A DNA stretch of 64,000 nucleotides from Spirochaetia bacterium (GCA_963662795.1 OY759746.1:2240001-2304000), one strand, 5' to 3'; counted from the stretch's first letter, positions 50,049 through 62,595 are shown. Numbers and translations are program-made. Notes: generated by a model from the sequence alone, not told the origin.

Positions 50049-50475
50049 ACGCAGATTATAGTTTAAAAAAGATTTTTCTGTAAGATTTATTCCCTTTCTG
50101 CTCAAGGATATTAATAGCCGGTTTTTTATGGCAGAAGCAGGACCTGAGCAAAAAAACTCCAATAAATTTCAGTAAAAATTTTCAGGGTAAAAAGAACGAA
50201 AAATCCTTTTTTTGAAGAGATTATCATATTAAATGATATGAATAAGTGAAAATGTCTGAAAAATAACACAACAATCAGGCCGAAATCAAGGATTTATTAT
50301 TTTAATGTGAATTGTATAACTACAAATAAAAATAGGTATTTTATTAATCAAAAATTTATGTTAATAAAATATTATTGCACATTTAATGTAACTGATGTTA
50401 CAATAAAAACTGCAGTACAGATGAAATTTCAGTAATTTTATCCGGTACTGATAATCTAAGCAATGAAGGGAGTTT

Positions 50476-51048
50476 GTGCAAATGAAAACCGAGCTTGATG
50501 AAGCCAAGAAAGAAACCGCACAGTGCAGCTGCAGCGAAGATGAAGAATCTTTATATTCAGGTCTTGATGTGGTAATAGACGGGTTTATAGGTGTCCCCGG
50601 GGCCCTGATTCCGGTTCTCCAGTCCACGCAGAATATTTTCGGCTATCTGCCGGAAAAAGCGCTTAAGCATATAAGTGAAAGAATGAAGATACCATACAGT
50701 GAAGTAACAGGTGTTGTAACATTTTATTCATATTTTTCCACTGTTCCACGCGGGAAACACATAATCAGGGTCTGCCTTGGCACTTCCTGCTATGTCAGAG
50801 GGGGAAAAGAGGTACTGGAGGCGATCCAGAAAAAACTTTCAATTCCTGTGGGCGGCACTACTGTGGACAAGATGTTCTCACTGGAAGTCGGCAGATGTTT
50901 CGGTGCATGCGGTCTTGCGCCTACAATTTCAATAGACGGAGAAGTGTATAAAAAAGTAAAACCGACAAAAATAGGTGAAATAATTGAACCGTTTTATGCT
51001 GAAGCTGACGCTGAAGCTAATGCCGGTGCTGACAGGGAGGAGGTTTAA
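50476..51048 (+). CDS. hydC: [FeFe]-hydrogenase 1 gamma subunit (NuoE-like, 2Fe-2S)
   Basis: VTFY, CLGTSC, CFGACGLAP. Confidence 0.9.
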   Translation: MQMKTELDEAKKETAQCSCSEDEESLYSGLDVVIDGFIGVPGALIPVLQSTQNIFGYLPEKALKHISERMKIPYSEVTGVVTFYSYFSTVPRGKHIIRVCLGTSCYVRGGKEVLEAIQKKLSIPVGGTTVDKMFSLEVGRCFGACGLAPTISIDGEVYKKVKPTKIGEIIEPFYAEADAEANAGADREEV

Positions 51049-54000
51049 ATGGGTAAGGAAAAAAAATTGAAAAATAAAATAACCACTCTTGCCGATCTCG
51101 AAAAAATAAAACAGGAGTCCCTGAAAAGGATGGCTGTAAGACTTCAGGATCCGGCGGAAAAAGGGCTTCCCGGAGATACCCCTTTTCATATTATGTTCTG
51201 TTTCGGGACAGGGTGTCTTTCATCAGGCGCTGCCTTTGTAAAGAAGGCATTTGCAGAAAATCTTGAAAAAAACGGGCTTGCGGACAAGGTTACACTTGTA
51301 GAAACTGGCTGTAACGGATTCTGCGCCGGCGGGCCGATTGTTGTAGTCTATCCCGGAGGATATTTTTATCAGAAAGTCTCTCCTGAAGATGCTGTTGATA
51401 TTGTTGAAAGCCACCTTGTAAAAGGTAAACCTGTAAAGCGGCTTATGTTTCATAATCCTGTCAACGGGGAGGTAATACCCAAGTATAAGGATATTTACTT
51501 TTTCGCTCTCCAGAATCTGAGAGTTCTTCACAACAAAGGTCTTATATCCGCAGACAGTATCGATGATTATATAGCCCGTGACGGGTATTTCGGATTTTAT
51601 AAGGCGCTTAAAGAGCTGGAGCCGGACGGGATAATCAAGGAAATTGCTGAATCAGGCCTTAGAGGAAGGGGCGGCGCAGGCTTTACAACAGGAATGAAAT
51701 GGAAGTTCTGCAGCAGGACAGAAAGCAATAAAAAATACATTATCTGCAATGCTGATGAAGGGGACCCGGGAGCGTTCATGGATAGAAGTATTCTTGAGGC
51801 AGATCCCCATGCCGTACTTGAAGGAATGATGATAGGAGCAAGAGCGATTGGGGCAGATACCGGTTATATTTACTGCAGGGCGGAATATCCGCTTGCTATT
51901 CAGCGCCTGGAACACTCAATAAACGAATGCCGTGAAATGGGTCTTCTTGGTAAAAACATCCTTGGAACTGATTTTTCATTTGACATAAAGATTGCTCAGG
52001 GTTCAGGAGCATTTGTCTGCGGAGAAGAGACCGCACTTATGAGATCCATAGAAGGGAAAAGGGGAGAGCCGAGGCCCCGTCCTCCGTTTCCGGCTGTTAA
52101 AGGTCTTTTTGATAAACCTTCCGTACTTAATAATGTTGAAACATTCGGCAATGTCCCTCTCATAATAAAAAACGGCGCAAAGTGGTTCAGGGAAACCGGA
52201 ACTGAAAAATCTCCCGGGACAAAGATATTTGCGCTTACAGGGAATGTTAATAATATTGGCCTAGTCGAAGTAAATATGGGTACGCCGCTCGGAGATATCA
52301 TATATGAAATCGGGGGAGGGATCCCCAACGGGAAGAAGTTCAAGGCTGCCCAGATGGGAGGCCCGTCCGGCGGATGCATAACAAAAGAGCATCTTAATGT
52401 GCCGGTTGATTACGAATCAGTTATTGAACTTGGCGCCATAATGGGCTCAGGCGGACTTATCGTAATGGATGAAGACACCTGTATGGTGGACATGGCAAGG
52501 TTCTTTCTTGAATTCATCCAGGAAGAGTCCTGCGGAAAATGCGTTCCATGCCGCGTAGGAACAAAAAGGATGCTTGAGATTGTTACCCGGATATGCGAAG
52601 GGAAGGGAGAGCTCGAAGATATTGACAGACTTGTTTCGCTGGGAAATCAGATCAAGGATACGGCATTATGCGGTCTTGGTCAGACTGCCCCTAATCCTGT
52701 TCTTTCGACTATAAGGTATTTCAGGAGTGAATATGAGGCCCACATCCTTGAAAAGAGGTGTCCCGCCGGTGTATGTCCGAGTCTTGTAAGGGCCCCGTGT
52801 CAGAGCGGATGCCCGGCAAAGGTTGATATACCGTCATTTGTGGCTTTGACCGGCGACAAGAGATACGCTGAAGCGCTGCAGGTGCACAGGAACAGGAACC
52901 CGTTTGCGGCAATCTGCGCAAGGGTCTGCTTTCATACCTGTGAGGACAAGTGCAGAAGGGCAACGCTTGATGAATCTGTTTCGATCCGGGGAGTAAAAAG
53001 ATTCCTTGTTGATCAGGAAGTTATTGTCCAGAAGCCTGAAAGCAGAGAGAGCGAACGGAACGCAAAAAGAAAAATAGCTATTATCGGAGCAGGGCCTGCA
53101 GGTCTCTCCTGCGGATATTTTCTCGCAAGGCTTGGATACAAACCTAAAGTATTTGAATCGGAATTAAGGCCGGGCGGTATGCTTGTGCAGACTATTCCAT
53201 CCTACAGACTGCCCCGGGAAACACTTGCCCGTGAAATAAGAATGATAGAACAGCTTGGTGTTGATATTGAAACAGGTGTGTCCCTCGGTAAGGACTTTAC
53301 ATTGAAGAGCCTCGCTGATGAGGGGTATGAGGCTGTTTTCATGGGTGTCGGGGCGCCTGATCCCATTACCCTTGGACTTCTTGGAGAAGAAGCGGAAAAT
53401 GTAACAGACGCAATACCTTTCCTCAAGCAGTACAATATCAGGGGTTCTGTCCCGGTCGGGAAGAACGTAATAGTTATCGGAGGGGGAAACGCCGCAATTG
53501 ACGCCGCGAGAACTGCCCTCCGGCTCGGCGCTGAAAGTGTAAAGGTTGTTTACAGAAGAAGCCAGGGAGAGATGCCGGCATATGAAGAAGAAATTGATGA
53601 AGCTATTTCCGAAGGTGTTGTTCTTATGACATTGACACAGCCTGTTGAGGTCATAAAAAATGAGAAAGGCGCTGCTTCCGGCCTCAGGTGCATTCCCATG
53701 AAACTGGGCGAATATGACAGGACAGGAAGAAGAAGACCGACAGAAAAAGAGGGAGAAACATTCATAATTGATGCCGACCAGATAATTATCGCAATCGGCC
53801 AGAAACTTAAAACAGAAAAACTGCTCGGCGAAACAATGCCTGCCCTTACAAGACAGGGCTTTATCCAGACAAACCCGGTTACAGGCCAGACAAGCCTTCC
53901 GTGGCTTTTTGCCGGAGGCGATAACGCTACCGGTCCTGCTTCTGTTGTTAACGCAATAGCAGGCGGCGAGAAAGCGGCAGTAGGTATTCATGACTATCTT

Positions 54001-54273
54001 CTCGGGGAAGGCGAGCCTTTTTGGAGAGAGGAGCAGGTTCTTGATACTGAATATGATCCTGACGCGGATCCTGTTCCCTATCCGAGGGAAAAACAGAGAT
54101 CGATCGCTGTTGAGAGAAGAAGACATAATTTTGATGAAGTAGAACTGGCATGGAATGAAAGTGTAGCTGTCAGACAGTGCAAAAGATGCCTGAGATGTGA
54201 TTATGGAAAAGTTCCCGGTCCGCTTGTGGAAACAACGGTCCAGGTAGTAAGGGAGGTACCAATAAATGCCTAA
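51049..54273 (+). CDS. hydB: [FeFe]-hydrogenase 1 beta subunit: thioredoxin-2Fe2S + NuoF (FMN/NADH) fused to a GltD/Nfn-like FAD/NADP(H) module
   Basis: GLRGRGGAGF, CNADEGDPGAFMDR, GAFVCGEE, GGPSGG, ESCGKCVPCR, then CQSGCP, GAGPAG, GGGNAAID, YRR, FAGGD, CLRCD. Confidence 0.9.
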   Translation: MGKEKKLKNKITTLADLEKIKQESLKRMAVRLQDPAEKGLPGDTPFHIMFCFGTGCLSSGAAFVKKAFAENLEKNGLADKVTLVETGCNGFCAGGPIVVVYPGGYFYQKVSPEDAVDIVESHLVKGKPVKRLMFHNPVNGEVIPKYKDIYFFALQNLRVLHNKGLISADSIDDYIARDGYFGFYKALKELEPDGIIKEIAESGLRGRGGAGFTTGMKWKFCSRTESNKKYIICNADEGDPGAFMDRSILEADPHAVLEGMMIGARAIGADTGYIYCRAEYPLAIQRLEHSINECREMGLLGKNILGTDFSFDIKIAQGSGAFVCGEETALMRSIEGKRGEPRPRPPFPAVKGLFDKPSVLNNVETFGNVPLIIKNGAKWFRETGTEKSPGTKIFALTGNVNNIGLVEVNMGTPLGDIIYEIGGGIPNGKKFKAAQMGGPSGGCITKEHLNVPVDYESVIELGAIMGSGGLIVMDEDTCMVDMARFFLEFIQEESCGKCVPCRVGTKRMLEIVTRICEGKGELEDIDRLVSLGNQIKDTALCGLGQTAPNPVLSTIRYFRSEYEAHILEKRCPAGVCPSLVRAPCQSGCPAKVDIPSFVALTGDKRYAEALQVHRNRNPFAAICARVCFHTCEDKCRRATLDESVSIRGVKRFLVDQEVIVQKPESRESERNAKRKIAIIGAGPAGLSCGYFLARLGYKPKVFESELRPGGMLVQTIPSYRLPRETLAREIRMIEQLGVDIETGVSLGKDFTLKSLADEGYEAVFMGVGAPDPITLGLLGEEAENVTDAIPFLKQYNIRGSVPVGKNVIVIGGGNAAIDAARTALRLGAESVKVVYRRSQGEMPAYEEEIDEAISEGVVLMTLTQPVEVIKNEKGAASGLRCIPMKLGEYDRTGRRRPTEKEGETFIIDADQIIIAIGQKLKTEKLLGETMPALTRQGFIQTNPVTGQTSLPWLFAGGDNATGPASVVNAIAGGEKAAVGIHDYLLGEGEPFWREEQVLDTEYDPDADPVPYPREKQRSIAVERRRHNFDEVELAWNESVAVRQCKRCLRCDYGKVPGPLVETTVQVVREVPINA

Positions 54274-56038
54274 AGCAGAAATAAACAACATGGAAATACA
54301 GTTTGAAGCCGGCGATACAATACTTAAGGCAGCCCATGCTTCAGGGATAGAGATACCCACACTTTGCTTTCTTGAGGGAAAAGATCCCCAGGGCGCATGC
54401 AGGGTATGCGTTGTCGAGATTGATAAAAACAAGCCTCTGGCTGTCGCGTGTGCTACGCCGATTATTGAAGGCATGAAGATCATGACCAATACCAAAAGGG
54501 TGCGGGAAGCGAGAAGGACCGTTGTCGAACTTCTTTTAAGCGAGCATGAAGGGAACTGTCAGTACTGCGACAGGGCTGAAGACTGTGAACTCAAAAAGCT
54601 GGCTTACCAGCTTGGAGTAAGTGAAATACGATACGAAGGGGAAAAACCTTTATCATGGATTGATGAGACAACACCGGCCCTTATAAGGGATCAGGCAAAA
54701 TGCATTAAATGCAGAAGATGTGTAACTGTATGCAATAATGTACAGGGTGTCGGCGCGCTGTTTCCCCAGGGACGCGGATATTCAACTGTTATCAGCACTG
54801 CCTTTGATTCTGGTCTTGATACTGTTGCATGCGTTCAGTGCGGCCAGTGCTCAGCTGTCTGCCCTGTCGGGGCTATTACTGAAAGAAACCATATTGATGC
54901 GGTTTGGAGAGCCATAGAGGATCCTGAAAAATTCGTTGTTGTCCAGACAGCTCCCGCAATCAGGGCAGCGCTGGGCGAGTGTTTCGGATATGAGCCGGGT
55001 ACCCTTGTTACAGGCAAGATGGTTTCCGCCCTGAGGCTATTGGGATTTGACAGGGTCTTTGATACAAACTTTACGGCAGACCTTACCATACTGGAGGAGG
55101 GGACAGAACTTCTTACAAGATTAAAAAGCGCGCTTGTTGATAAAAAGCCGGCTTCGTTTCCGATGTTCACCTCCTGCTCACCCGGATGGATTAAGTTCGC
55201 CGAGTATTTTTACCCGGAATTTCTTCCAAACCTTTCAACCTGCAAAAGCCCGCAACAGATGTTCGGCGCTGTAGCTAAAACATATTACGCTGAGAAAGCG
55301 GGTGTTGATCCGAAAAAAATGGTTGTTGTATCTGTAATGCCCTGTACCGCAAAGAAATTTGAAGCAGAAAGGCCTGAAATGGCATCCAGCGGAAGCAAGG
55401 ATGTTGATTATGTTCTCACTACACGGGAACTGGGGCGGATGATCCAGTCCGCAGGAATTGATTTCAAGGTCCTTCCCGACGGTAAAATCGACAGCCCGAT
55501 AGGGATGTCTTCAGGCGCGGCCGACATTTTCGCCAATACCGGCGGTGTAATGGAAGCGGCCCTCAGGACAGTACACGAGATAGTAACAGGCAGGGAACTT
55601 CCGATGGAGAATCTGCATGTGAAACCGGTTGAGGGACTTGCCGGAATCAAGGAGGCATCCGTGACTTTTACAGGCACGGTCCCTGACTGGAATTTCCTCG
55701 AGGGTGTTACGGCAAAAGTTGCTGTTGCCCACGGACTCGGGAACACAAGGACCCTTCTTGACAGCATCAACGAGGGGAAGAGCCAGTATCATTTTGTCGA
55801 GATCATGACCTGTCCCGGCGGGTGTATCGGAGGAGGAGGCCAGCCGCGCCTTACGACTGATGATGTCAGGCTGGCAAGGATCAGGGCAATTTACAAGGAA
55901 GATGAGGGTAAGGAAATAAGGAAATCACATATGAACCCTGAGATTTTAAGGATATATGAGGATTATCTTGTTAAACCGCTTGGAGAAAAATCTCACCATC
56001 TGCTTCATACTCACTATATTGAGAGATCCAGGGTGTAA
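54266..56038 (+). CDS. hydA: [FeFe]-hydrogenase 1 catalytic subunit (group A, multimeric type)
   Basis: H-cluster motifs FTSCSPGW, MPCTAKKFE, EIMTCPGGCIGGGGQP; N-terminal 2Fe-2S, His-ligated 4Fe-4S and 2x4Fe-4S domains. Confidence 0.96.
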   Translation: MPKAEINNMEIQFEAGDTILKAAHASGIEIPTLCFLEGKDPQGACRVCVVEIDKNKPLAVACATPIIEGMKIMTNTKRVREARRTVVELLLSEHEGNCQYCDRAEDCELKKLAYQLGVSEIRYEGEKPLSWIDETTPALIRDQAKCIKCRRCVTVCNNVQGVGALFPQGRGYSTVISTAFDSGLDTVACVQCGQCSAVCPVGAITERNHIDAVWRAIEDPEKFVVVQTAPAIRAALGECFGYEPGTLVTGKMVSALRLLGFDRVFDTNFTADLTILEEGTELLTRLKSALVDKKPASFPMFTSCSPGWIKFAEYFYPEFLPNLSTCKSPQQMFGAVAKTYYAEKAGVDPKKMVVVSVMPCTAKKFEAERPEMASSGSKDVDYVLTTRELGRMIQSAGIDFKVLPDGKIDSPIGMSSGAADIFANTGGVMEAALRTVHEIVTGRELPMENLHVKPVEGLAGIKEASVTFTGTVPDWNFLEGVTAKVAVAHGLGNTRTLLDSINEGKSQYHFVEIMTCPGGCIGGGGQPRLTTDDVRLARIRAIYKEDEGKEIRKSHMNPEILRIYEDYLVKPLGEKSHHLLHTHYIERSRV

Positions 56039-56087
56039 ATTCTGTTTTTCCCGATAATTGAAACGGGAAAAGAACATAAATCGTGTT

Positions 56088-56136
56088 AAAAAAAAGAAAG
56101 GCTGCATGCGGATTTGCCCGCGCGCAGCCTTTTTTT
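56088..56136. terminator. Bidirectional intrinsic terminator between the two hydrogenase operons
   Basis: A tract, AAAGGCTGCATGCGG / CCGCGCGCAGCCTTT hairpin, T tract. Confidence 0.85.
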
Positions 56137-56161
56137 ATTTCTTTATGAAAAAAACCTGATG

Positions 56162-57934
56162 CTAAACTGATTTCGGCGTATAGCTGGTATGCAGAAGATG
56201 ATGTGAAATCTCGCCCAGAGGCTTGATGAGAAAATTCCTGTACAGGGCCTGTATTTCGGGATTTTCATGCGATTTCCTTATCCCGAGATTTATATCCTCC
56301 CTGTATATCGATTCCGCCCTTTTTTTTCTTATCTCCCATGTGGTTGGGATGGGCTGTCCTCCTCCGCCGAGGCATCCTCCCGGGCATGCCATTACCTCAA
56401 TAAAAGCATAGGGGGATTTCCCTTCTTTTATCTCATCAAGAAGTTTTCTCGCGTTTTTAAGGGTATGGGCAACGGCAACCCGTACCGGCTTTCCTTTAAT
56501 ATTGATTTCAGCTTCTTTTATCCCTTCCATACCCCTTACATCCGCAAACTCAACCTTATCAAGGGTAGTACCTGTCAGCACCTCATAGGCTGTCCGCAGG
56601 GCTGCTTCCATTACACCTCCGGTTGCCCCGAATATTACAGCTGCCCCGGTTGATTTTCCAAGCGGATTGTCAAATTCCTCTTCCGGGAGCCCTGCAAAAT
56701 CAAGTCCGGTCTCCCTGAACATCCTCGCAAGCTCTCTTGTTGTAAGGGCATAATCCACATCCGGAAAACCTGCCCTGTTTGTAAGTTTTTTTCTCTCTTT
56801 CCAGTAGTGGAAAGCGGAATTCATTTCAGGCCTTTCTGCTTCATATTTCTTGGCGGTACAGGGCATTACAGATATGACCCTGATCTTTTCAGGGTCAAGG
56901 TCCGCCTGCCCGGCGTACCAGGTTTTTGCCAAAGCCCCGAACATCTGCTGCGGGCTCTTGCAGGTTGAGATATTTGCAAGCTGATCAGGGAAAAAGTGCT
57001 CAATGAATTTGATCCATCCGGGAGAGCAGGAGGTAATCATCGGGAGGGTTCCTCCTGTTGATATCCTTTTTATAAGCTCATGCCCCTCTTCCATTATTGT
57101 AAGGTCTGCCGTGAATTGTGTATCAAAAACCCTGTCAAATCCCAGTTTTCTGATTCCGGCTACCATTTTTCCTGTTACCAGGGCCCCGCTCTCCATCCCC
57201 ATGGCTTCTCCTATTCCAATGCGGATAGCCGGGGCGGTCTGTATAATGGTAAAAATATCAGGATCGTAAATATCCCGCCAGATGCTGCTGATATCTGATT
57301 TTTCAACAATTGCGCCGGTCGGGCAGACCAAAGAGCACTGACCGCAGTTGGTGCATACGGAGCTGCCCAGTCCCCTGTCCATGAATGTTGTTACACGGCT
57401 GTGAAGGCCCCGGCCTGTGACATCTATCGCGTTTACCGTCTGGATTTCGCTGCATACGCTTATGCACCTGTTGCAGAGGATGCATTTATTCGGGTCCCGG
57501 ATAAGAGAAGGGGAAGATGTATCGAGCGGCAGTGTTTTTGTCCTGGTCTTTGCGTAATGCTGTTCACGCACGCCGAGCTCCCATGCCAGTTTTTGCAGTT
57601 CACAATTCTGGTTCCTGTCGCATTTAAGGCAGTCATCAGGATGGTTGGCAAGGATAAGTTCCAGGTTTGTTTTTCTTGCTTTTCTTATTCTCTCGGAGTT
57701 TGTTGTTATTTCCATATCTGCCCAGACTGAATAGGAACATGAGCGGACAAGCTTTTTTGAGTCTTTTACTTCAATACAGCATATTGCGCAGGATGCGTTT
57801 GAAGCGACATCCTCCATAAAGCATAAATGGGGAATATTTATCCCTACCTCTTTGCAGGCATTAAGAATCGTGGTTCCCTCATCAACCAGGTAATCCTTTC
57901 CGTCAATAATTATGTTTATCTTTTTTCTCATCAT
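56162..57934 (-). CDS. hydA: [FeFe]-hydrogenase 2 catalytic subunit
   Basis: ITSCSPGW, MPCTAKKYE, EVMACPGGCLGGGGQP; GGAGG RBS with ATGA overlap to the hydB stop. Confidence 0.96.
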   Translation of the reverse strand: MMRKKINIIIDGKDYLVDEGTTILNACKEVGINIPHLCFMEDVASNASCAICCIEVKDSKKLVRSCSYSVWADMEITTNSERIRKARKTNLELILANHPDDCLKCDRNQNCELQKLAWELGVREQHYAKTRTKTLPLDTSSPSLIRDPNKCILCNRCISVCSEIQTVNAIDVTGRGLHSRVTTFMDRGLGSSVCTNCGQCSLVCPTGAIVEKSDISSIWRDIYDPDIFTIIQTAPAIRIGIGEAMGMESGALVTGKMVAGIRKLGFDRVFDTQFTADLTIMEEGHELIKRISTGGTLPMITSCSPGWIKFIEHFFPDQLANISTCKSPQQMFGALAKTWYAGQADLDPEKIRVISVMPCTAKKYEAERPEMNSAFHYWKERKKLTNRAGFPDVDYALTTRELARMFRETGLDFAGLPEEEFDNPLGKSTGAAVIFGATGGVMEAALRTAYEVLTGTTLDKVEFADVRGMEGIKEAEINIKGKPVRVAVAHTLKNARKLLDEIKEGKSPYAFIEVMACPGGCLGGGGQPIPTTWEIRKKRAESIYREDINLGIRKSHENPEIQALYRNFLIKPLGEISHHLLHTSYTPKSV

Positions 57935-60900
57935 CTGACACCTCCCGTACCGGAAAGCTTTATGTCGCACCTTAAGCACCTCATTGCCTCGCGCCGGGCC
58001 TGGTCTCCCATATAACCCAGGTTGATTTCCTGAAAATTCCCCTTCCTGTCTTTTACATTTAAATGCCTGCTCTCAATTCCCTCCGCAGATATTATCTCCT
58101 CAGGTATTTCATTGCCGTACTCAAATGTCCTGAACAGGGAGTCAAATCTGTGTTTACCTGTCAGGTCGAAATCAATTATTGAGGAAGCTGTTTTTGCAAG
58201 ACCCATGGCTTCGGCTGCAGTAGACGGGCCTGTTGTTACATCGCCGGCCGCATAAACCAGGGGTTTTCCTGTCCTGCAGGTATAGGGATTGATATAAGCT
58301 GTCCCTTTTTCCGTTGTTATTATTTTTTCCTGTTCAAGGAGGGCTGAATCTACCTTTTCGCCTACTGCAATTACGACAGTATCGCATTTAAGGACAGAGA
58401 TATTACCTGTTTTAACCGGTTTTCTTCTCCCTGACAAATCGAACTGTCCCCCTTCCATTTTCATGATTTCAATTGTTTCCACACTTCCGTCTTTGTTTCC
58501 GGTTATCCTTACAGGATTTGCCATAAACATGAATTTAATCCCCTCAGCTTCCGCCTCGGCAATTTCGCTCTTGTTCGCCGGCATGTCCTCTTTTGCCCTT
58601 CTGTAGGCGACAGTTACATCCGCCCCCGCTCTCCATAAAGATCTTGCGGTGTCTATGGCGACATTACCGCCGCCGATAATTACCGCTTTTTTACCGAGGG
58701 GAATCATCCTCTTTTTCTCCATGTTATCAAGCAGTTCCGTACCCTGAACCACCCCTTTCAGCTGCGATCCGGAAAGGTCAAAACCGATATGCTTATAGGA
58801 CCCGATGGCAAGAAAAACTGTGTCATATTCCTTTAAAAGAGAGTCTGTGTGTATATCCCTGCCGAGGGATTTGTTGAAGAGAAATTTGACCCCGAGTTTT
58901 TTAAAAATCTGAAGCTCTTTATCAAGAATTTCTTTCGGAAGCCTGTAGGAAGGGATACCGTAACGGAGGACTCCCCCTGCTTTCGGGTTCTGGTCATAGA
59001 CTGTAATACTGTGGCCGAGCCTGGAAAGATAAAAAGCCGCTGTAAGGCCCGCGGGACCTGCTCCGATAACTGCTATTTTTTTACCGGTTGACGGGAGTTT
59101 TTCCTTTAGAAGTTTATCATATATCTCGTTCTCCCTTCCCATCTTGTACATTGTGTCTGCCAGATACCTGTGAATTTCACCCTGATGCACCGGCTCGTCG
59201 ATTGTATCCCTCCTGCATCTCATCTGGCAGTGGAAATGGCATATTCTTCCGATTGTCCCCGGCAGCGGGTTATCGCGGAGTGTTGATTCAAAGGCTTCCT
59301 CAAGCCTGTCTTCCTTAAGCAGTGTGAGGTAGGCCGGTATGTCCATGTGCATGGGACATGAGTTTGAGCAAAGCGTTGTAAAGAGCGCTTCGCAAGTCCC
59401 TGCGCTGCAGTGGTGCCGCTGGATGTGCTCTTCATATTCATTCCTGAAATATTTAAGCGTTGTCAGTACCGGATTAGGGGCTGTCTGTCCAAGCCCGCAA
59501 AGGGCCGTATCGATAATAACATTGCCGAGCTCTTCCATCACAGCAAGGTCTGAATCCTCTCCTCCCCCTTTTGTAATTTTATTCAGCAGATTAAGCTCCT
59601 GCGAAAGCCCTTCGCGGCAGGGAACGCATTTTCCGCATGACTCTGAATTCGTGAACTCAATAAAATATCTTGCCACATCAACCATGCAGTTATCCTGGTC
59701 CATTACTACCATGCCGCCGGAACCCATAATGGCCCCGAGAGACGCAAGTGACTCATAATCTATCGGAGTCCCGAATTTTGATACCGGTATGCAGCCGCCC
59801 GACGGGCCGCCTGACTGTACCGCTTTTACCTTTTTTTCCTTTCCGGCGGCGCCGCCGCCAATTTCATAAACCAGAGTAAGAAGGGATTCCCCAAGAGGAA
59901 GCTCTGCAAGTCCCGTGTTTTTAACCTTTCCTACAAGGGAAAAGACTTTTGTCCCCGGGCTTTTTCCTGTACCTGTTTTTAAAAACCACTTGCTTCCTTT
60001 TGCAATAATCACGGGAATATTGCTCCAGGTTTCCACATTGTTGATATTTGTCGGATAACACATAAATCCGCACTGTGCGGGGAAAGGGGGCCTCGGTTTG
60101 GGTCTTCCGGCTTTTCCTTCAGCTGACGCAATCAGCGCTGTTTCCTCTCCGCAGACAAAAGCGCCGGCTCCCTCAACAATTGTAAGGTCAAAGATGAAGC
60201 TGGTGCCGGGTATTTTTGCCCCTATAAACCCAGCCTCCCGGGCCTGGCTTATTGCTTTCTTAAGTCTTTCGACCGCAAGGGGATATTCTGCCCGGACATA
60301 GATTATTCCCTCGTTCGCTCCCATTGCGTATGCGCCGATCAGCATCCCTTCAATGATCATGTGAGGATCGCTTTCTATTTCGTTCCTGTTCATGTATGCC
60401 CCGGGATCCCCTTCATCCGCGTTACAGATAATGTATTTCTTTTCCGCGGATTCTTTTCCCATAAGCGCCCATTTTACGCCTGTTGGAAAGCCGGCTCCGC
60501 CCCGGCCCCGGAGCCCCGATGCCTTTACTTCACCTATAACATCCTGAGGGCTCATTTCGGTAACGGCTTTTATAAATGCTGAATAACCACCCACGGCGAT
60601 GTATTCTTCGATTGATTCCGGATCAATAAGACCCGCATCCCTTAGTACTATTTTTTTCTGGCTTTTAAAAAAAGGTATCTCGTTCCATTCCGGAACACCT
60701 TTATAGCCGCTGCCGTAGCTGATATGGTGAGTATGATGGTCCCATTCTGAAATTTTGCACAGGATGAGTCTTTCCGGGAATGAAGCTTTTTCGATTCCTT
60801 TAATGATAGCATTAACATCTTTCTTCTGTACCCTGTTAAGCACCAGTAAAGGCTGTCCCGGTATGTTTATATTGACAAGCGGTTCTTTAGAGCAGTATCC

Positions 60901-61095
60901 CAGACATCCTGTTTTTCTTAATGTTATTCCCCCTTTTTGCCCCTTTAATCCTGTTTCAAATGCCTCATAAAGCTGGTCTGCTCCGTTACCGATGCCGCAG
61001 GTCCCCATTCCGATGGAGATTGAAGGAAGGTCGGGTTTTATTTTTTTTAAGCCTGCATTTTTCATTTTACTGATTTTTTTGATGTAATCTTTCAT
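57931..61095 (-). CDS. hydB: [FeFe]-hydrogenase 2 beta subunit: NuoF fused to a GltD/Nfn-like module
   Basis: GLRGRGGAGFPTG, CNADEGDPGAYMNR, GAFVCGEE, GGPSGG, ESCGKC, GAGPAG, GGGNVAID, YRR, YAAGD, CLRCD. Confidence 0.9.
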   Translation of the reverse strand: MKDYIKKISKMKNAGLKKIKPDLPSISIGMGTCGIGNGADQLYEAFETGLKGQKGGITLRKTGCLGYCSKEPLVNINIPGQPLLVLNRVQKKDVNAIIKGIEKASFPERLILCKISEWDHHTHHISYGSGYKGVPEWNEIPFFKSQKKIVLRDAGLIDPESIEEYIAVGGYSAFIKAVTEMSPQDVIGEVKASGLRGRGGAGFPTGVKWALMGKESAEKKYIICNADEGDPGAYMNRNEIESDPHMIIEGMLIGAYAMGANEGIIYVRAEYPLAVERLKKAISQAREAGFIGAKIPGTSFIFDLTIVEGAGAFVCGEETALIASAEGKAGRPKPRPPFPAQCGFMCYPTNINNVETWSNIPVIIAKGSKWFLKTGTGKSPGTKVFSLVGKVKNTGLAELPLGESLLTLVYEIGGGAAGKEKKVKAVQSGGPSGGCIPVSKFGTPIDYESLASLGAIMGSGGMVVMDQDNCMVDVARYFIEFTNSESCGKCVPCREGLSQELNLLNKITKGGGEDSDLAVMEELGNVIIDTALCGLGQTAPNPVLTTLKYFRNEYEEHIQRHHCSAGTCEALFTTLCSNSCPMHMDIPAYLTLLKEDRLEEAFESTLRDNPLPGTIGRICHFHCQMRCRRDTIDEPVHQGEIHRYLADTMYKMGRENEIYDKLLKEKLPSTGKKIAVIGAGPAGLTAAFYLSRLGHSITVYDQNPKAGGVLRYGIPSYRLPKEILDKELQIFKKLGVKFLFNKSLGRDIHTDSLLKEYDTVFLAIGSYKHIGFDLSGSQLKGVVQGTELLDNMEKKRMIPLGKKAVIIGGGNVAIDTARSLWRAGADVTVAYRRAKEDMPANKSEIAEAEAEGIKFMFMANPVRITGNKDGSVETIEIMKMEGGQFDLSGRRKPVKTGNISVLKCDTVVIAVGEKVDSALLEQEKIITTEKGTAYINPYTCRTGKPLVYAAGDVTTGPSTAAEAMGLAKTASSIIDFDLTGKHRFDSLFRTFEYGNEIPEEIISAEGIESRHLNVKDRKGNFQEINLGYMGDQARREAMRCLRCDIKLSGTGGVR

Positions 61096-61628
61096 GAATT
61101 TCTCCTGCGGGCAGTTTTTTTCGCGGATGAGAGTTTTTTGATAATTGATTCAAGTTTTTCGGAAGTCATGTGGCTGAATATAACGCCGTCGACAGCAATT
61201 ACCGGAGCAAGGGCGCACTGTCCGAAGCATGCGACAGTTCTGACTGTAAATCTCATGTCATCTGTCGTGTAGGATGTCTCGCCTCCTGTTTCCTCTTCAT
61301 TAAGGCCGAGTTTGATCATTATATCGGCAAGAAGCGCTCTTGACCCTCTGGTATGGCAGGCCGTACCCCTGCAGACTGTAACAGTATGGTCTCCCTGGGG
61401 TTTGAGATTGAAAAATGAATAGAATGTAATAACAGAGTAGATTCCTGAAAGCGGGACTTCCATTTTTTCAGCGACATAACGGATTGCAGGTTCTGTCAGA
61501 TAACTGTGGGGAGTCGCCGTCTGAATATCTTCAAGTACTGAAAGAAGATCTCCCGGTTTTCCCCTGTATCCTGCAATAATTGAATTAAAAAGTGAATTAT
61601 CGATTTGCTGAACTTTTGATGATTTCAC
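61092..61628 (-). CDS. hydC: [FeFe]-hydrogenase 2 gamma subunit (NuoE-like)
   Basis: ITFY, CRGTAC, CFGQCALAP; TAGGAGG + GTG. Confidence 0.9.
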   Translation of the reverse strand: MKSSKVQQIDNSLFNSIIAGYRGKPGDLLSVLEDIQTATPHSYLTEPAIRYVAEKMEVPLSGIYSVITFYSFFNLKPQGDHTVTVCRGTACHTRGSRALLADIMIKLGLNEEETGGETSYTTDDMRFTVRTVACFGQCALAPVIAVDGVIFSHMTSEKLESIIKKLSSAKKTARRRNS

Positions 61629-61793
61629 ATAACCCTCCTAAAATATTTTTATAATTTATAAAAAAATTGCCAAGCTGAGGTGTGACATGGAAAAACAAAA
61701 GCTGTATTGGTTTTAAATTAGCTGTAATGAAAAAAGAAAAACATCCGGAAAATTGGCTATTTTCCGGATATAAGATGATACGGGTAATCTGAC

Positions 61794-62225
61794 TCAGTAA
61801 GGTGAAATAATGTAATTTTTAAGCTGCTCGTTTTCAAAAAGGTTGATCTGAAGAAGTTCACTTACAACATCTCCGATCGAAACCAGTCCCGCCAGCTTGC
61901 CTTCATCCATTACCGGAAGATGTCTGATTTTGTTGCTGTCGAACAGCTTCATTACGTCAATGATGTTGGCAGTTTTTTCAGCTGAAATAACTTTGGATGC
62001 CGGTGTCATGATATCGCTTACATTTTTGTCCAGATTGGTGAAACCTTTTCTCAGGATATCTCTTTCAGAAACAATTCCCTTAAGATTTCCGGCTGCATCA
62101 ACAACAACCAGCGCGCCGACTTTTTTACTGTTAAGAGTGTCTATACATTCTCTTACTTTCTGATTTTCCCTGATGGTGTAAATCTCATGTCCTTTTTTCT
62201 TGTCCAGATAGGTACCTACGTTCAT
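61794..62225 (-). CDS. Tandem CBS-domain protein
   Basis: VGALVV..GIVSERD, IRHLPV..GLVSIGD; AGGAG RBS before ATG 62225. Confidence 0.9.
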   Translation of the reverse strand: MNVGTYLDKKKGHEIYTIRENQKVRECIDTLNSKKVGALVVVDAAGNLKGIVSERDILRKGFTNLDKNVSDIMTPASKVISAEKTANIIDVMKLFDSNKIRHLPVMDEGKLAGLVSIGDVVSELLQINLFENEQLKNYIISPY

Positions 62226-62595
62226 ACAAACTCCTTTAAAAAACATTAAAACCCGGTCCTGAAAAACTACCGGCATTTAAAAACCCCGAATAGTTTCCAT
62301 GACTTTTGGACTCACGTAAATTTTAGTATGAAAAAAGCAGTAACGCAACCAATTTTTTTATAACTTTCATAATTTGAAACGGCTTATTGCATCATAAATA
62401 TCGAGAAAGCAGTGATTTAAATATGCTGAATCAAAAAAAGTATAAAATATTTGTATAAAATGTTAAAAGTTACTCTAAAATAATGATAAAGATACATAAA
62501 ACCATCAAATTATTGCGTTTAATAAATATAATTCAGACAGCTGACTGCAGTTATGTGTATAGACACTGAAAAAAGAGGCAGGTATACTTGTTTTC

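Follow-up and report, generated by a model that had tools for sequence, protein, structure and literature searches.

Convergent [FeFe]-hydrogenase operons of a Spirochaetia bacterium with HydB subunits fused to a permuted GltD-type FAD/NADP(H) module

In the solved Bfu enzymes, electrons of the A subunit reach cluster B1 and the flavin mononucleotide (FMN), at which NAD(H) reacts, and a low-potential branch leads from C1 to B3/B4, where ferredoxin docks (as described in PMC12018979). A variant in which the B subunit (BfuB, named HydB below) carries DPD_II/Fer4_20 and flavin adenine dinucleotide (FAD)/NAD(P) domains in place of B3/B4 was defined as sub-type I BfuABC, a group A3 [FeFe]-hydrogenase, by Zheng & Huang (2024, mSystems; PMC11406978), who state that biochemical validation is lacking, and the same fusion was noted in 2018 in Vallitalea guaymasensis L81 (PMC6163223); both accounts, in the portions at hand, are in silico only. 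The present analysis concerns a window of 64,000 nucleotides (the whole stretch analysed) from a Spirochaetia bacterium (GCA_963662795.1, OY759746.1:2240001-2304000), in which an open reading frame (ORF) map and Pfam/NCBIfam searches placed two convergent hydC-hydB-hydA operons at 50476-56038 (+ strand) and 56162-61628 (- strand). Domain content and a structure model show each of them to encode a predicted soluble trimeric [FeFe]-hydrogenase of this published, uncharacterised sub-type I BfuABC kind.

The architecture is already in print and is less new than a first-pass annotation of the window implied. The view taken there that similar fusions exist with little biochemistry was borne out: the fusion is described in both papers, and a full-text literature search, which did not cover subscription-only journals, found no purified or assayed enzyme with such a HydB. 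New here are a circular permutation of the GltD-type module with a C-terminal CxxC tail, a deep split into two subfamilies, and Lys/His ligand and B5 differences; the available text of PMC11406978 and PMC6163223 makes no mention of the permutation, of the Lys/His ligand split or of a Gly-Gly variant of the B5 site. Specific to this window is that both deep subfamilies stand side by side, with the ligand differences between them.

Besides the replacement of B3/B4, the operons share with sub-type I BfuABC an M3-type (M3a) HydA, an adjacent bfuC, the C-B-A gene order and the absence of HydD, and the relatives of HydB1 are named from phyla listed in the accessible part of PMC11406978 (Spirochaetota, Planctomycetota, Hydrogenedentota). 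They differ from it in that two deeply diverged subfamily members lie tail to tail. StnABC/NfnABC (S. ovata 8oh5, C. saccharolyticus 9bov, T. sibiricus 9n5u) have the same BfuBC core and a permuted GltD cassette with a Lys ligand; however, their cassette belongs to the A subunit and serves the mid-potential input path, and their BfuB keeps B3/B4 and reduces ferredoxin, whereas here BfuB carries the cassette instead of B3/B4 and a hydrogenase with Fe_hyd_lg_C forms the A subunit. The bifurcating HydABC of A. woodii, T. kivui and T. maritima (7q4v, 8a6t, 7p5h) and the NiFe-HydABCSL of A. mobile (7t2r) match the HydB core with 631-801 bits (residues 47-582 or similar), and HydA and HydC are of the same kind as in bifurcating HydABC, which in contrast has the ferredoxin-type B3/B4 that is missing here and lacks the second flavin and nucleotide site. 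The FAD/NADPH subunit of NfnAB/NfnSL (T. maritima 4ylf, P. furiosus 5jca) has the fold of the module (311 and 275 bits), but NfnB is not permuted, its CxxC being N-terminal, and has Glu where the HydBs have Lys or His.

Existing classifications pass over this type. The survey of Schut et al. (2022; PMC9304861), in the definition consulted, requires IPR011538, IPR019554, IPR019575 and IPR017896 in BfuB, and the fused type falls outside it because a ferredoxin-type domain is required. By Pfam proxies, HydB1 has the first three and HydB2 has Complex1_51K and NADH_4Fe-4S, and the ferredoxin-type domain is missing in both; the features set for BfuC and BfuA are present (PF01257, i.e. IPR002023, NuoE-like, in both HydCs; Fer2_4/Fer2 and Fer4_7 in both HydAs). 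The HydDB rule separating group A2 (GltD, no NuoF) from group A3 (NuoF) reads the protein downstream of HydA and gives NuoF priority (according to PMC5037454). Here the neighbour of HydA is HydB, which has both NuoF and GltD and lies upstream, not downstream as the rule reads; the priority of NuoF over GltD, as worded there, hides the difference of the fused type.

Anatomy of the fused HydB and its partner subunits

HydB1 (P0001, 1074 aa; hydB1 at 51049..54273, + strand) was assigned as a fusion of a NuoF-type core with a GltD-type module by Pfam, motifs and an AlphaFold2 (AF2) model, and HydB2 (P0002, 1054 aa; hydB2 at 57931..61095, - strand) by Pfam/NCBIfam, motifs and the alignment of its relatives. 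Both have, in this order, a thioredoxin-like N-domain, Complex1_51K, NADH_4Fe-4S, Fer4_20 (PF14691) and Pyr_redox_2 (PF07992). For HydB1 and HydB2, respectively, the E values were 2e-45 and 7e-48 for Complex1_51K, 5e-20 and 1.5e-21 for Fer4_20, and 7e-31 and 1e-37 for Pyr_redox_2, so that all three domains that had been proposed for a domain check were found in both proteins; an SLBB match was listed for HydB1 only. No ferredoxin-type Fer4 or dicluster family matched either HydB at E<=1e-3. The loss of the C-terminal 2x[4Fe-4S] ferredoxin domain, as first annotated, therefore stands in so far as there is no Fer4 match, but Fer4_20 puts two [4Fe-4S] sites in the same place.

Relatives were collected by a word-indexed database search with each HydB, in which 8000 candidates were scored and the best 120 clusters per query listed. 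All of these best 120 of 8000 were full-length PF01512 + PF14691 + PF07992 fusions, with 58-88% identity and 93-100% coverage for P0001 and 60-73% and 90-100% for P0002.

In HydB1 the FMN/NAD(H) core with the SLBB and [4Fe-4S] B1 domains comprises residues 199-565 (51643..52743, + strand; PF01512, PF10531, PF10589), and its nearest solved relatives are the bifurcating BfuB subunits 7t2r_B, 7q4v_B and 8a6t_B. The motifs ADEGDPGAFM and ADEGDPGAYM, GAFVCGEE, GGPSG, GAGPAG, GGGN..ID and YRR were present in the two HydB proteins and are kept in 115-120 of the 120 sequences of each relative set, most of them being invariant. According to the text available of Losey et al. (2020; PMC7311640), a bifurcating HydB is marked by A/E and M in the NADH-site motif, F near FMN, and GGPSG. 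HydB1 and HydB2 both carry these marks, and the residues concerned (A and M in ADEGDPGAxM, F in GAFVCGEE, GGPSG) are conserved in 119-120 of 120 sequences per subfamily. Conservation among relatives extends to the hinge ligands H565, C571 and C576 and to the Cys residues of cluster B1; one B1 Cys column reads Gly in 24/120 HydB1-type rows, where an alignment effect is possible.

The claim that both HydBs keep the residues of bifurcating enzymes was thus upheld for the motifs, and for the N-terminal 2Fe-2S site it applies to HydB1 but not to HydB2. In HydB1 the thioredoxin-like [2Fe-2S] domain with the B5 site covers residues 46-120 (51184..51408, + strand; PF01257), and its Cys 51, 56, 88 and 92 are kept in 119-120/120 relatives. 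In HydB2 Gly takes the place of two of the four canonical Cys of B5 (likewise in 117 and 118 of 120 relatives), with conserved Cys33 and Cys113 in addition, and the 2Fe-2S_thioredx match stays under the gathering score (20.8 vs 24.8 bits). The same pattern is found in the Nfn-BfuB of this genome, and a Gly-for-Cys change at B5 is described for StnB in the portion of the Stn literature at hand; NfnB of T. sibiricus, as reported in PMC12018979, has Zn at the B5 site and yet bifurcates.

The module proper begins in HydB1 with a Fer4_20 domain for two [4Fe-4S] clusters (residues 576-657, 52774..53019, + strand; Cys 584, 588, 627, 631 and 635, and Lys650), which matches PF14691 at profile positions 24-108 only; the match starts at position 19 in HydB2. 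It is followed by the FAD and NADP(H) Rossmann domains (residues 675-985, 53071..54003, + strand; PF07992) with GAGPAG, GGGNAAID and YRR, and by a C-terminal tail with RCLRC (residues 1023-1053, 54115..54207, + strand), which alignment to solved relatives identified as the permuted first Fer4_20 segment. Residues 1020-1051 align with residues 12-43 of T. maritima NfnB, that is, with the missing CxxC-bearing first segment, moved to the C-terminus, and residues 581-1051 are collinear with C. saccharolyticus NfnA 101-567 and with StnC 101-566. C1047 and C1050 of the tail are kept in 119-120 of 120 relatives. The nearest solved relatives of the module are C. saccharolyticus NfnA (9bov_A, 355 bits), T. 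sibiricus NfnA (9n5u_A) and StnC (8oh5_C), followed by T. maritima NfnB (4ylf_B). By these alignments the HydB module is of the circularly permuted StnC/NfnA-Bfu type and not of the NfnB type. The GltD/NfnB/StnC-type module of the first-pass annotation is accordingly retained for its FeS motifs, GAGPAG, GGGN..ID and YRR and for the StnC/NfnA-Bfu side, and the permutation and the ranking of solved relatives speak against the NfnB side.

At the position equivalent to K170 of StnC, which is essential and a proposed cluster ligand in the Stn paper (PMC10482914, in the text available), Lys is found in 120/120 HydB1-type sequences (Lys650) and His in 120/120 HydB2-type sequences; in T. maritima NfnB the residue is Glu. 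The seven Cys that the module has in common with StnC, the GxGxxG motif for FAD, the GxGxxA motif for NADPH and YRR are each kept in at least 119 of 120 sequences of either set. YRR occurs in all 240 sequences, and neither GxGxxA nor YRR differs from the motif of three solved relatives that use NADPH. The Arg of IPxYRLP, a flavin contact in NfnB, is likewise conserved in 240/240 HydB relatives and is also present in the non-bifurcating StnC.

The permuted form is not limited to HydB. When the module was the query of an exhaustive profile search, each of the 150 best representatives matched through to the tail, and among these the cassette was embedded at many positions in proteins of 296-1504 aa. 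One family of ~650 aa (P0267, P0303, P0318, P0356, P0359, P0363, P0390) has only the C-terminal [4Fe-4S] domain of NuoF and the permuted GltD cassette; it is probably NCBIfam PRK12771, which aligns from HydB1 residue 535, and some of its members may be gene fragments.

An AF2 model of HydB1 built with 113 sequences had a predicted local distance difference test (pLDDT) score of 88.5 and a predicted template modelling (pTM) score of 0.84. In a structure search its core matched bifurcating BfuB chains with Z 42-52; 7p5h, 8a6t and 7t2r gave Z 42-50, and 7q4v was not among the matches listed. The module matched NfnA with Z 48.2 (model 580-1061) and StnC with Z 46.2 (model 580-1059). Two BfuB chains that include B3/B4 span the junction of core and module: 9mqx_B (Z 52.3, model 8-643 to chain 1-612) and 9n5u_B (Z 49.6, model 44-1052 to chain 3-596, root-mean-square deviation 2.2 over 551 residues), where the ranges give the first and last aligned residues only. 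Because these chains align across the junction, the model suggests that the Fer4_20 clusters are placed where B3/B4 sit in the solved BfuB.

The catalytic subunits are HydA1 (590 aa; hydA1 at 54266..56038, + strand; PF02906 E 8.6e-97) and HydA2 (605 aa from GTG; hydA2 at 56162..57979, - strand; PF02906 E 5e-95). With 876 and 866 bits, respectively, these M3-type [FeFe]-hydrogenase subunits exceed the curated cut-off (765) of NCBIfam FeFe_hydrog_A6 (NF040763), and both consist of Fer2_4, NADH-G_4Fe-4S_3, Fer4, Fe_hyd_lg_C and Fe_hyd_SSU with no C-terminal extension. The NuoE-like [2Fe-2S] subunits are HydC1 (190 aa; hydC1 at 50476..51048, + strand; PF01257 E 9.5e-46; an ATG at 50482 is an alternative start) and HydC2 (178 aa; hydC2 at 61092..61628, - strand; PF01257 E 5.5e-42), with cluster Cys at 100, 105, 141 and 145 and at 86, 91, 134 and 138, respectively.

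Two peculiarities of these subunits were observed. HydC1 has an extra N-terminal CxC (residues 17-19; window 50524-50532), with CTCC at the same place in the Nfn-BfuC of this genome and without counterpart in HydC2 and the canonical HydC. Both HydA1 (55172-55186) and HydA2 (~57031-57017, - strand) read TSCSPGW and not TSCCP, which exchanges a Cys of the H-cluster cubane for Ser; the canonical HydA paralogue of the same genome keeps TSCCP. The Ser form is a published natural variant (Ser301 in A. woodii) and was found in 51/67 HydA matches of the fetched loci. As a mark of fused operons it was rejected, being present in 13/15 fused-linked vs 36/48 unfused-linked HydAs.

Proposed reaction and alternative readings

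The idea put forward in the first-pass annotation, a hydrogenase that links H2, NADH and NADPH directly, has the anatomy it calls for: the low-potential exit domain is replaced by a complete FAD/NADP(H) module in which all cofactor motifs are conserved. By sequence and model, HydA bears the H-cluster, HydC and the HydB core retain the Bfu-type bifurcation site (FMN, B1, C1), and B3/B4 is exchanged for the permuted GltD/StnC-type cassette with its two [4Fe-4S] clusters, FAD and NADP(H) site. In the scheme considered here, electrons from H2 would pass through HydA to the FMN, one pair leaving as NADH, and the ferredoxin branch would be rerouted through the two Fer4_20 clusters to the FAD and on to NADP+. 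The net reaction would be 2 H2 + NAD+ + NADP+ <-> NADH + NADPH + 2 H+, with no soluble ferredoxin. Such a reversible coupling of H2 to NAD(H) and NADP(H) is, from anatomy only, the most likely function, although we hold it tentatively, at somewhat less than an even chance.

Equilibrium H2 was computed from the cellular potentials given by Schut et al. in the part of PMC9304861 at hand (NAD ~-280, NADP ~-380 and ferredoxin ~-500 mV, with H2 at -414 mV at 1 bar) and amounted to ~3 Pa for NADH alone, ~100-150 Pa for NADH and NADPH, and ~0.15 bar for NADH and ferredoxin. If the enzyme runs in the fermentative direction, proton reduction by NADH (~-280 mV) would be made possible by NADPH (~-380 mV in cells) as the low-potential driver. 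Since the computed limit lies between the values for NADH alone and for NADH with ferredoxin, the fused enzymes would fill an intermediate H2 niche. The different cluster ligands of the two copies may tune them differently. The wider proposal, that of a new Bfu reaction class of ferredoxin-free, NADH- and NADPH-confurcating (or H2-bifurcating) hydrogenases with NADP(H) as the low-potential arm, in Lys- and His-ligated versions tuned to different H2/redox regimes in one cell, is possible but appears rather doubtful at present. The earlier suggestion of opposite working directions, or of different H2 pressures, for the two copies is not directly supported, and the only facts that bear on it are their ancient paralogy and the different ligands.

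Several points weigh against a ferredoxin-free coupled enzyme. The 3.93-Mb genome is fully equipped for ferredoxin metabolism, so that such a hydrogenase is neither forced nor predicted by it. Seven Fe_hyd_lg_C matches were counted; a canonical cluster (G000:C1:2542890-2550715) comprises hydC, an HATPase_c protein, a 130-aa ORF with no Pfam match, hydB (598 aa, with the Fer4 dicluster) and hydA, its HydB being nearest to Spirochaetota sequences. An Nfn-Bfu (Stn-like) operon (G000:C1:1737581-1742016) encodes 193, 597 and 684 aa, and a 1189-aa pyruvate:ferredoxin oxidoreductase (PFOR), two Rnf/Nqr D-subunit homologues and gltB-gltD-like ORFs (the last by size and similarity only) are also encoded. 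Because of the PFOR, the Rnf/Nqr D homologues, the canonical HydABC and Nfn-Bfu, the organism looks like a ferredoxin-using fermenter which has the two fused hydrogenases in addition. Secondly, the gap in driving force between NADPH and NADH is small compared with that between ferredoxin and NADH, and obligatory coupling may gain little. The nucleotide specificity of the FMN site is not readable from sequence, and the Arg of IPxYRLP is shared by bifurcating and non-bifurcating FAD, so that taking this FAD as non-bifurcating would draw on family resemblance only. Sequence alone does not separate the coupled reaction from the alternatives below.

Loss of gating with retention of both nucleotide sites would give an uncoupled hydrogenase, in which the FAD module is a second entry or exit and NADH or NADPH alone suffices; such an enzyme would also act as a plain NADPH:NAD+ transhydrogenase. 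HydABC whose HydB lacks B3/B4 are non-bifurcating according to the available text of Losey et al. (PMC7311640) and of PMC11406978, the module is a widely reused electron-transfer cassette (permuted in all 150 best representatives, at many positions), and our own calculation gives a modest gain from coupling NADPH and NADH. However, the bifurcating-type residues are kept in both HydBs and in 119-120/120 relatives of each, and so are the hinge ligands H565, C571 and C576, which is unexpected if gating has been lost. On balance we consider this reading unlikely.

Ferredoxin might also still be a substrate, docking on exposed Fer4_20 clusters or between the C-terminal domain of HydC and the module, with NADP(H) as a fourth substrate and the activities of HydABC and Nfn combined. 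In NfnAB, clusters of the same fold are the ferredoxin exit, which counts for this reading, as does the reduced ferredoxin made in the cell, for which the PFOR gene is present. In NfnABC of T. sibiricus, ferredoxin sits between the C-terminal domain of the C subunit and B3/B4 (PMC12018979, in the portion seen), and the Fer4_20 clusters appear to occupy that place. The clusters of the StnC/NfnA-Bfu type, however, relay electrons internally and do not reduce ferredoxin, as stated in the accessible part of PMC10482914, and a canonical ferredoxin-linked HydABC and Nfn-Bfu are already in the genome; ferredoxin as a substrate is again improbable, to about the same degree as the uncoupled enzyme.

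A second, Nfn-like bifurcating flavin catalysing 2 NADPH + NAD+ + H+ -> 2 NADP+ + NADH + H2, as postulated by Zheng & Huang (2024) in the text available of PMC11406978, would be thermodynamically feasible even at high H2 by our calculation and agrees with the NfnB flavin-contact Arg kept in 240/240 sequences, but it is very unlikely, given that the same Arg is conserved in StnC, whose FAD does not bifurcate, that neither operon has an NfnA-like [2Fe-2S] partner, leaving a single visible exit for the electrons of the FAD, and that the Glu ligand of NfnB (T. maritima) is Lys or His here. PMC10482914, as far as its text was available, describes the StnC FAD as experimentally non-bifurcating and NADPH-specific, as the NADPH entry point, and as passing single electrons to two [4Fe-4S] clusters, and finds the Arg conserved in both kinds of FAD, with only the geometry differing. 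No NfnA/NfnS-like gene was found in the two operons, a genome-wide search for NfnA not having been made.

The bifurcation mechanism of Bfu enzymes is debated, and a variant whose ferredoxin arm ends in a two-electron NADP(H) flavin is a natural test of low-potential gating. The coupled reaction, if true, would have several consequences. Routine names (NuoF, FAD-dependent oxidoreductase) would understate the function of the fused HydBs, and a direct step from H2 to NADPH would have to be added to the metabolic models of many anaerobes, the record names covering Spirochaetota, Planctomycetota, Verrucomicrobiota, Bacteroidota, Chloroflexota, Thermodesulfobacteriota and others. Cofactor regeneration would profit from a catalyst that passes electrons from H2 to NADPH without ferredoxin. 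The genome lends itself to such tests, with both subfamilies together and the canonical HydABC and Nfn-Bfu as internal controls.

Distribution and relationship of the two copies

Among the matches listed, the source names of HydB1-type sequences include Planctomycetota, Hydrogenedentes, Lentisphaerae, Spirochaetales, Chitinispirillaceae and Omnitrophota, and those of the HydB2 type include Sphaerochaeta, Paludibacter/Bacteroidota and Goldbacteria. In a pattern scan of one genome per species, at least 19 of the 80 loci kept matched the query through residue 1013 or beyond, with titles from Verrucomicrobiota, Smithella, Nitrospiraceae, Bacteroidales, Actinomycetota, Desulfobacterales, Bacillota/Halanaerobiales, Armatimonadota, Hyphomicrobiales and Anaerolineae. 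Among 41 genomes of the same class, this one included, the HydB1 type was full-length in 12, with two more copies cut at contig ends, and the HydB2 type in only five (the same genus and one sister genus), with one more copy cut short. The convergent pair recurs in one other genome of the same genus (G001), 3.7 kb apart.

At some loci the fused BfuB is followed by only the first ~200 residues of HydA (the NuoG-like Fe-S part) or by no HydA (L048, L062 and L091, contigs of metagenome-assembled genomes (MAGs) of Anaerolineae and Deltaproteobacteria; L023 and L088). Because such loci without a full HydA exist, the predicted NADPH-armed BfuB is not confined to hydrogenases. In two 'delta proteobacterium' MAG contigs (L018, L019), ~270 extra residues lie between the NuoF core and the GltD cassette.

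The cores of HydB1 and HydB2 agree in 49% of residues and their modules in 34%, and each half is nearer to an unfused relative of the same genome, the HydB1 core with 56% to the canonical HydB and the HydB1 module with 39% to the Nfn-BfuA module. HydA1 and HydA2 share 51% and HydC1 and HydC2 37% identity. Judged by their sequences, the twin operons are ancient paralogues of deeply diverged subfamilies and not a recent duplication.

In core trees HydB2 stood beside the Nfn-BfuB of its own genome (Shimodaira-Hasegawa (SH)-like support 98, SH-like approximate likelihood ratio test (SH-aLRT) 95; the Nfn-BfuB row is a long branch of 1.22) and HydB1 among the hydrogenase HydBs; the core tree left out loci L005-L014 and high-scoring segment pairs with internal stops, and counted L018 and L019 as unfused. 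An approximately unbiased (AU) test on the NuoF cores rejected the grouping of all fused rows in a single clade (lnL difference 174, p 7e-35), the group having been named after the first tree. A FastTree of 163 modules placed the HydB1 and HydB2 types in one 28-leaf clade (SH-like support 95 in a 32-row set), and a quick IQ-TREE of 66 modules had no supported joint clade, with seven changes of the NuoF-fused label, at least five of them forced. As to one or several fusion origins, the module trees thus disagree with each other, and the AU test on the cores argues against a single clade.

Locus layout and flanking features

The two operons had first been annotated as converging on one terminator, and the six ORFs were recovered with exactly the same borders. 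Junctions between neighbouring genes overlap or abut in both operons. For hydA2 the ATG at 57934 is the probable start; it overlaps the stop codon of hydB2, and the product would then have 590 rather than 605 aa. The 123-bp gap between hydA1 and hydA2 holds a bidirectional hairpin resembling an intrinsic terminator (56093..56136, both strands), seen by folding at -28.5 (+ strand) and -25.6 (- strand) kcal/mol with z of -5.5 and -5.4; none of 200 shuffles was as good, and it is flanked by an A-run and a U-run, giving U-runs on both strands. It was absent from the output of a simple consensus terminator scan and was seen by folding only.

The best promoter-like site upstream of hydC1 lies at 50376-50404 and is of the extended TG kind. 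A perfect palindrome, TGTAAC-N4-GTTACA, at 50387-50402 overlaps its -10 hexamer and may serve as an operator; upstream of hydC2 nothing similar was noticed. Regulation by Rex was rejected as a lead, a Rex-operator-like consensus having 7 matches in the window vs 6.5 expected and none near either promoter. No RNA run was among the 23 sequencing runs listed. Base composition was uninformative as a sign of horizontal transfer: the GC content of the operons is 0.44-0.49 against 0.397 for the genome, yet the canonical hyd and bfu genes have 0.44-0.50.

Two observations concern the other redox loci of the genome. The A subunit of the Nfn-Bfu operon is unusually short (684 aa), with Fer2_4, the permuted GltD cassette and one Fer4 dicluster, and adjoins a 2-hydroxyacid dehydrogenase gene; next after the canonical hydrogenase cluster comes a 908-aa protein that combines CHASE2 and adenylate/guanylate-cyclase domains. 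The neighbours of the operon pair are housekeeping genes, encoding trigger factor, an MgsA-type ATPase, a CBS protein and a NUDIX protein. Right after the CBS-domain gene (61794-62276) comes a 13-bp hairpin with a T-run (61741-61771, - strand), and since the gene has this hairpin directly behind it, it is probably not co-transcribed with hydC2.

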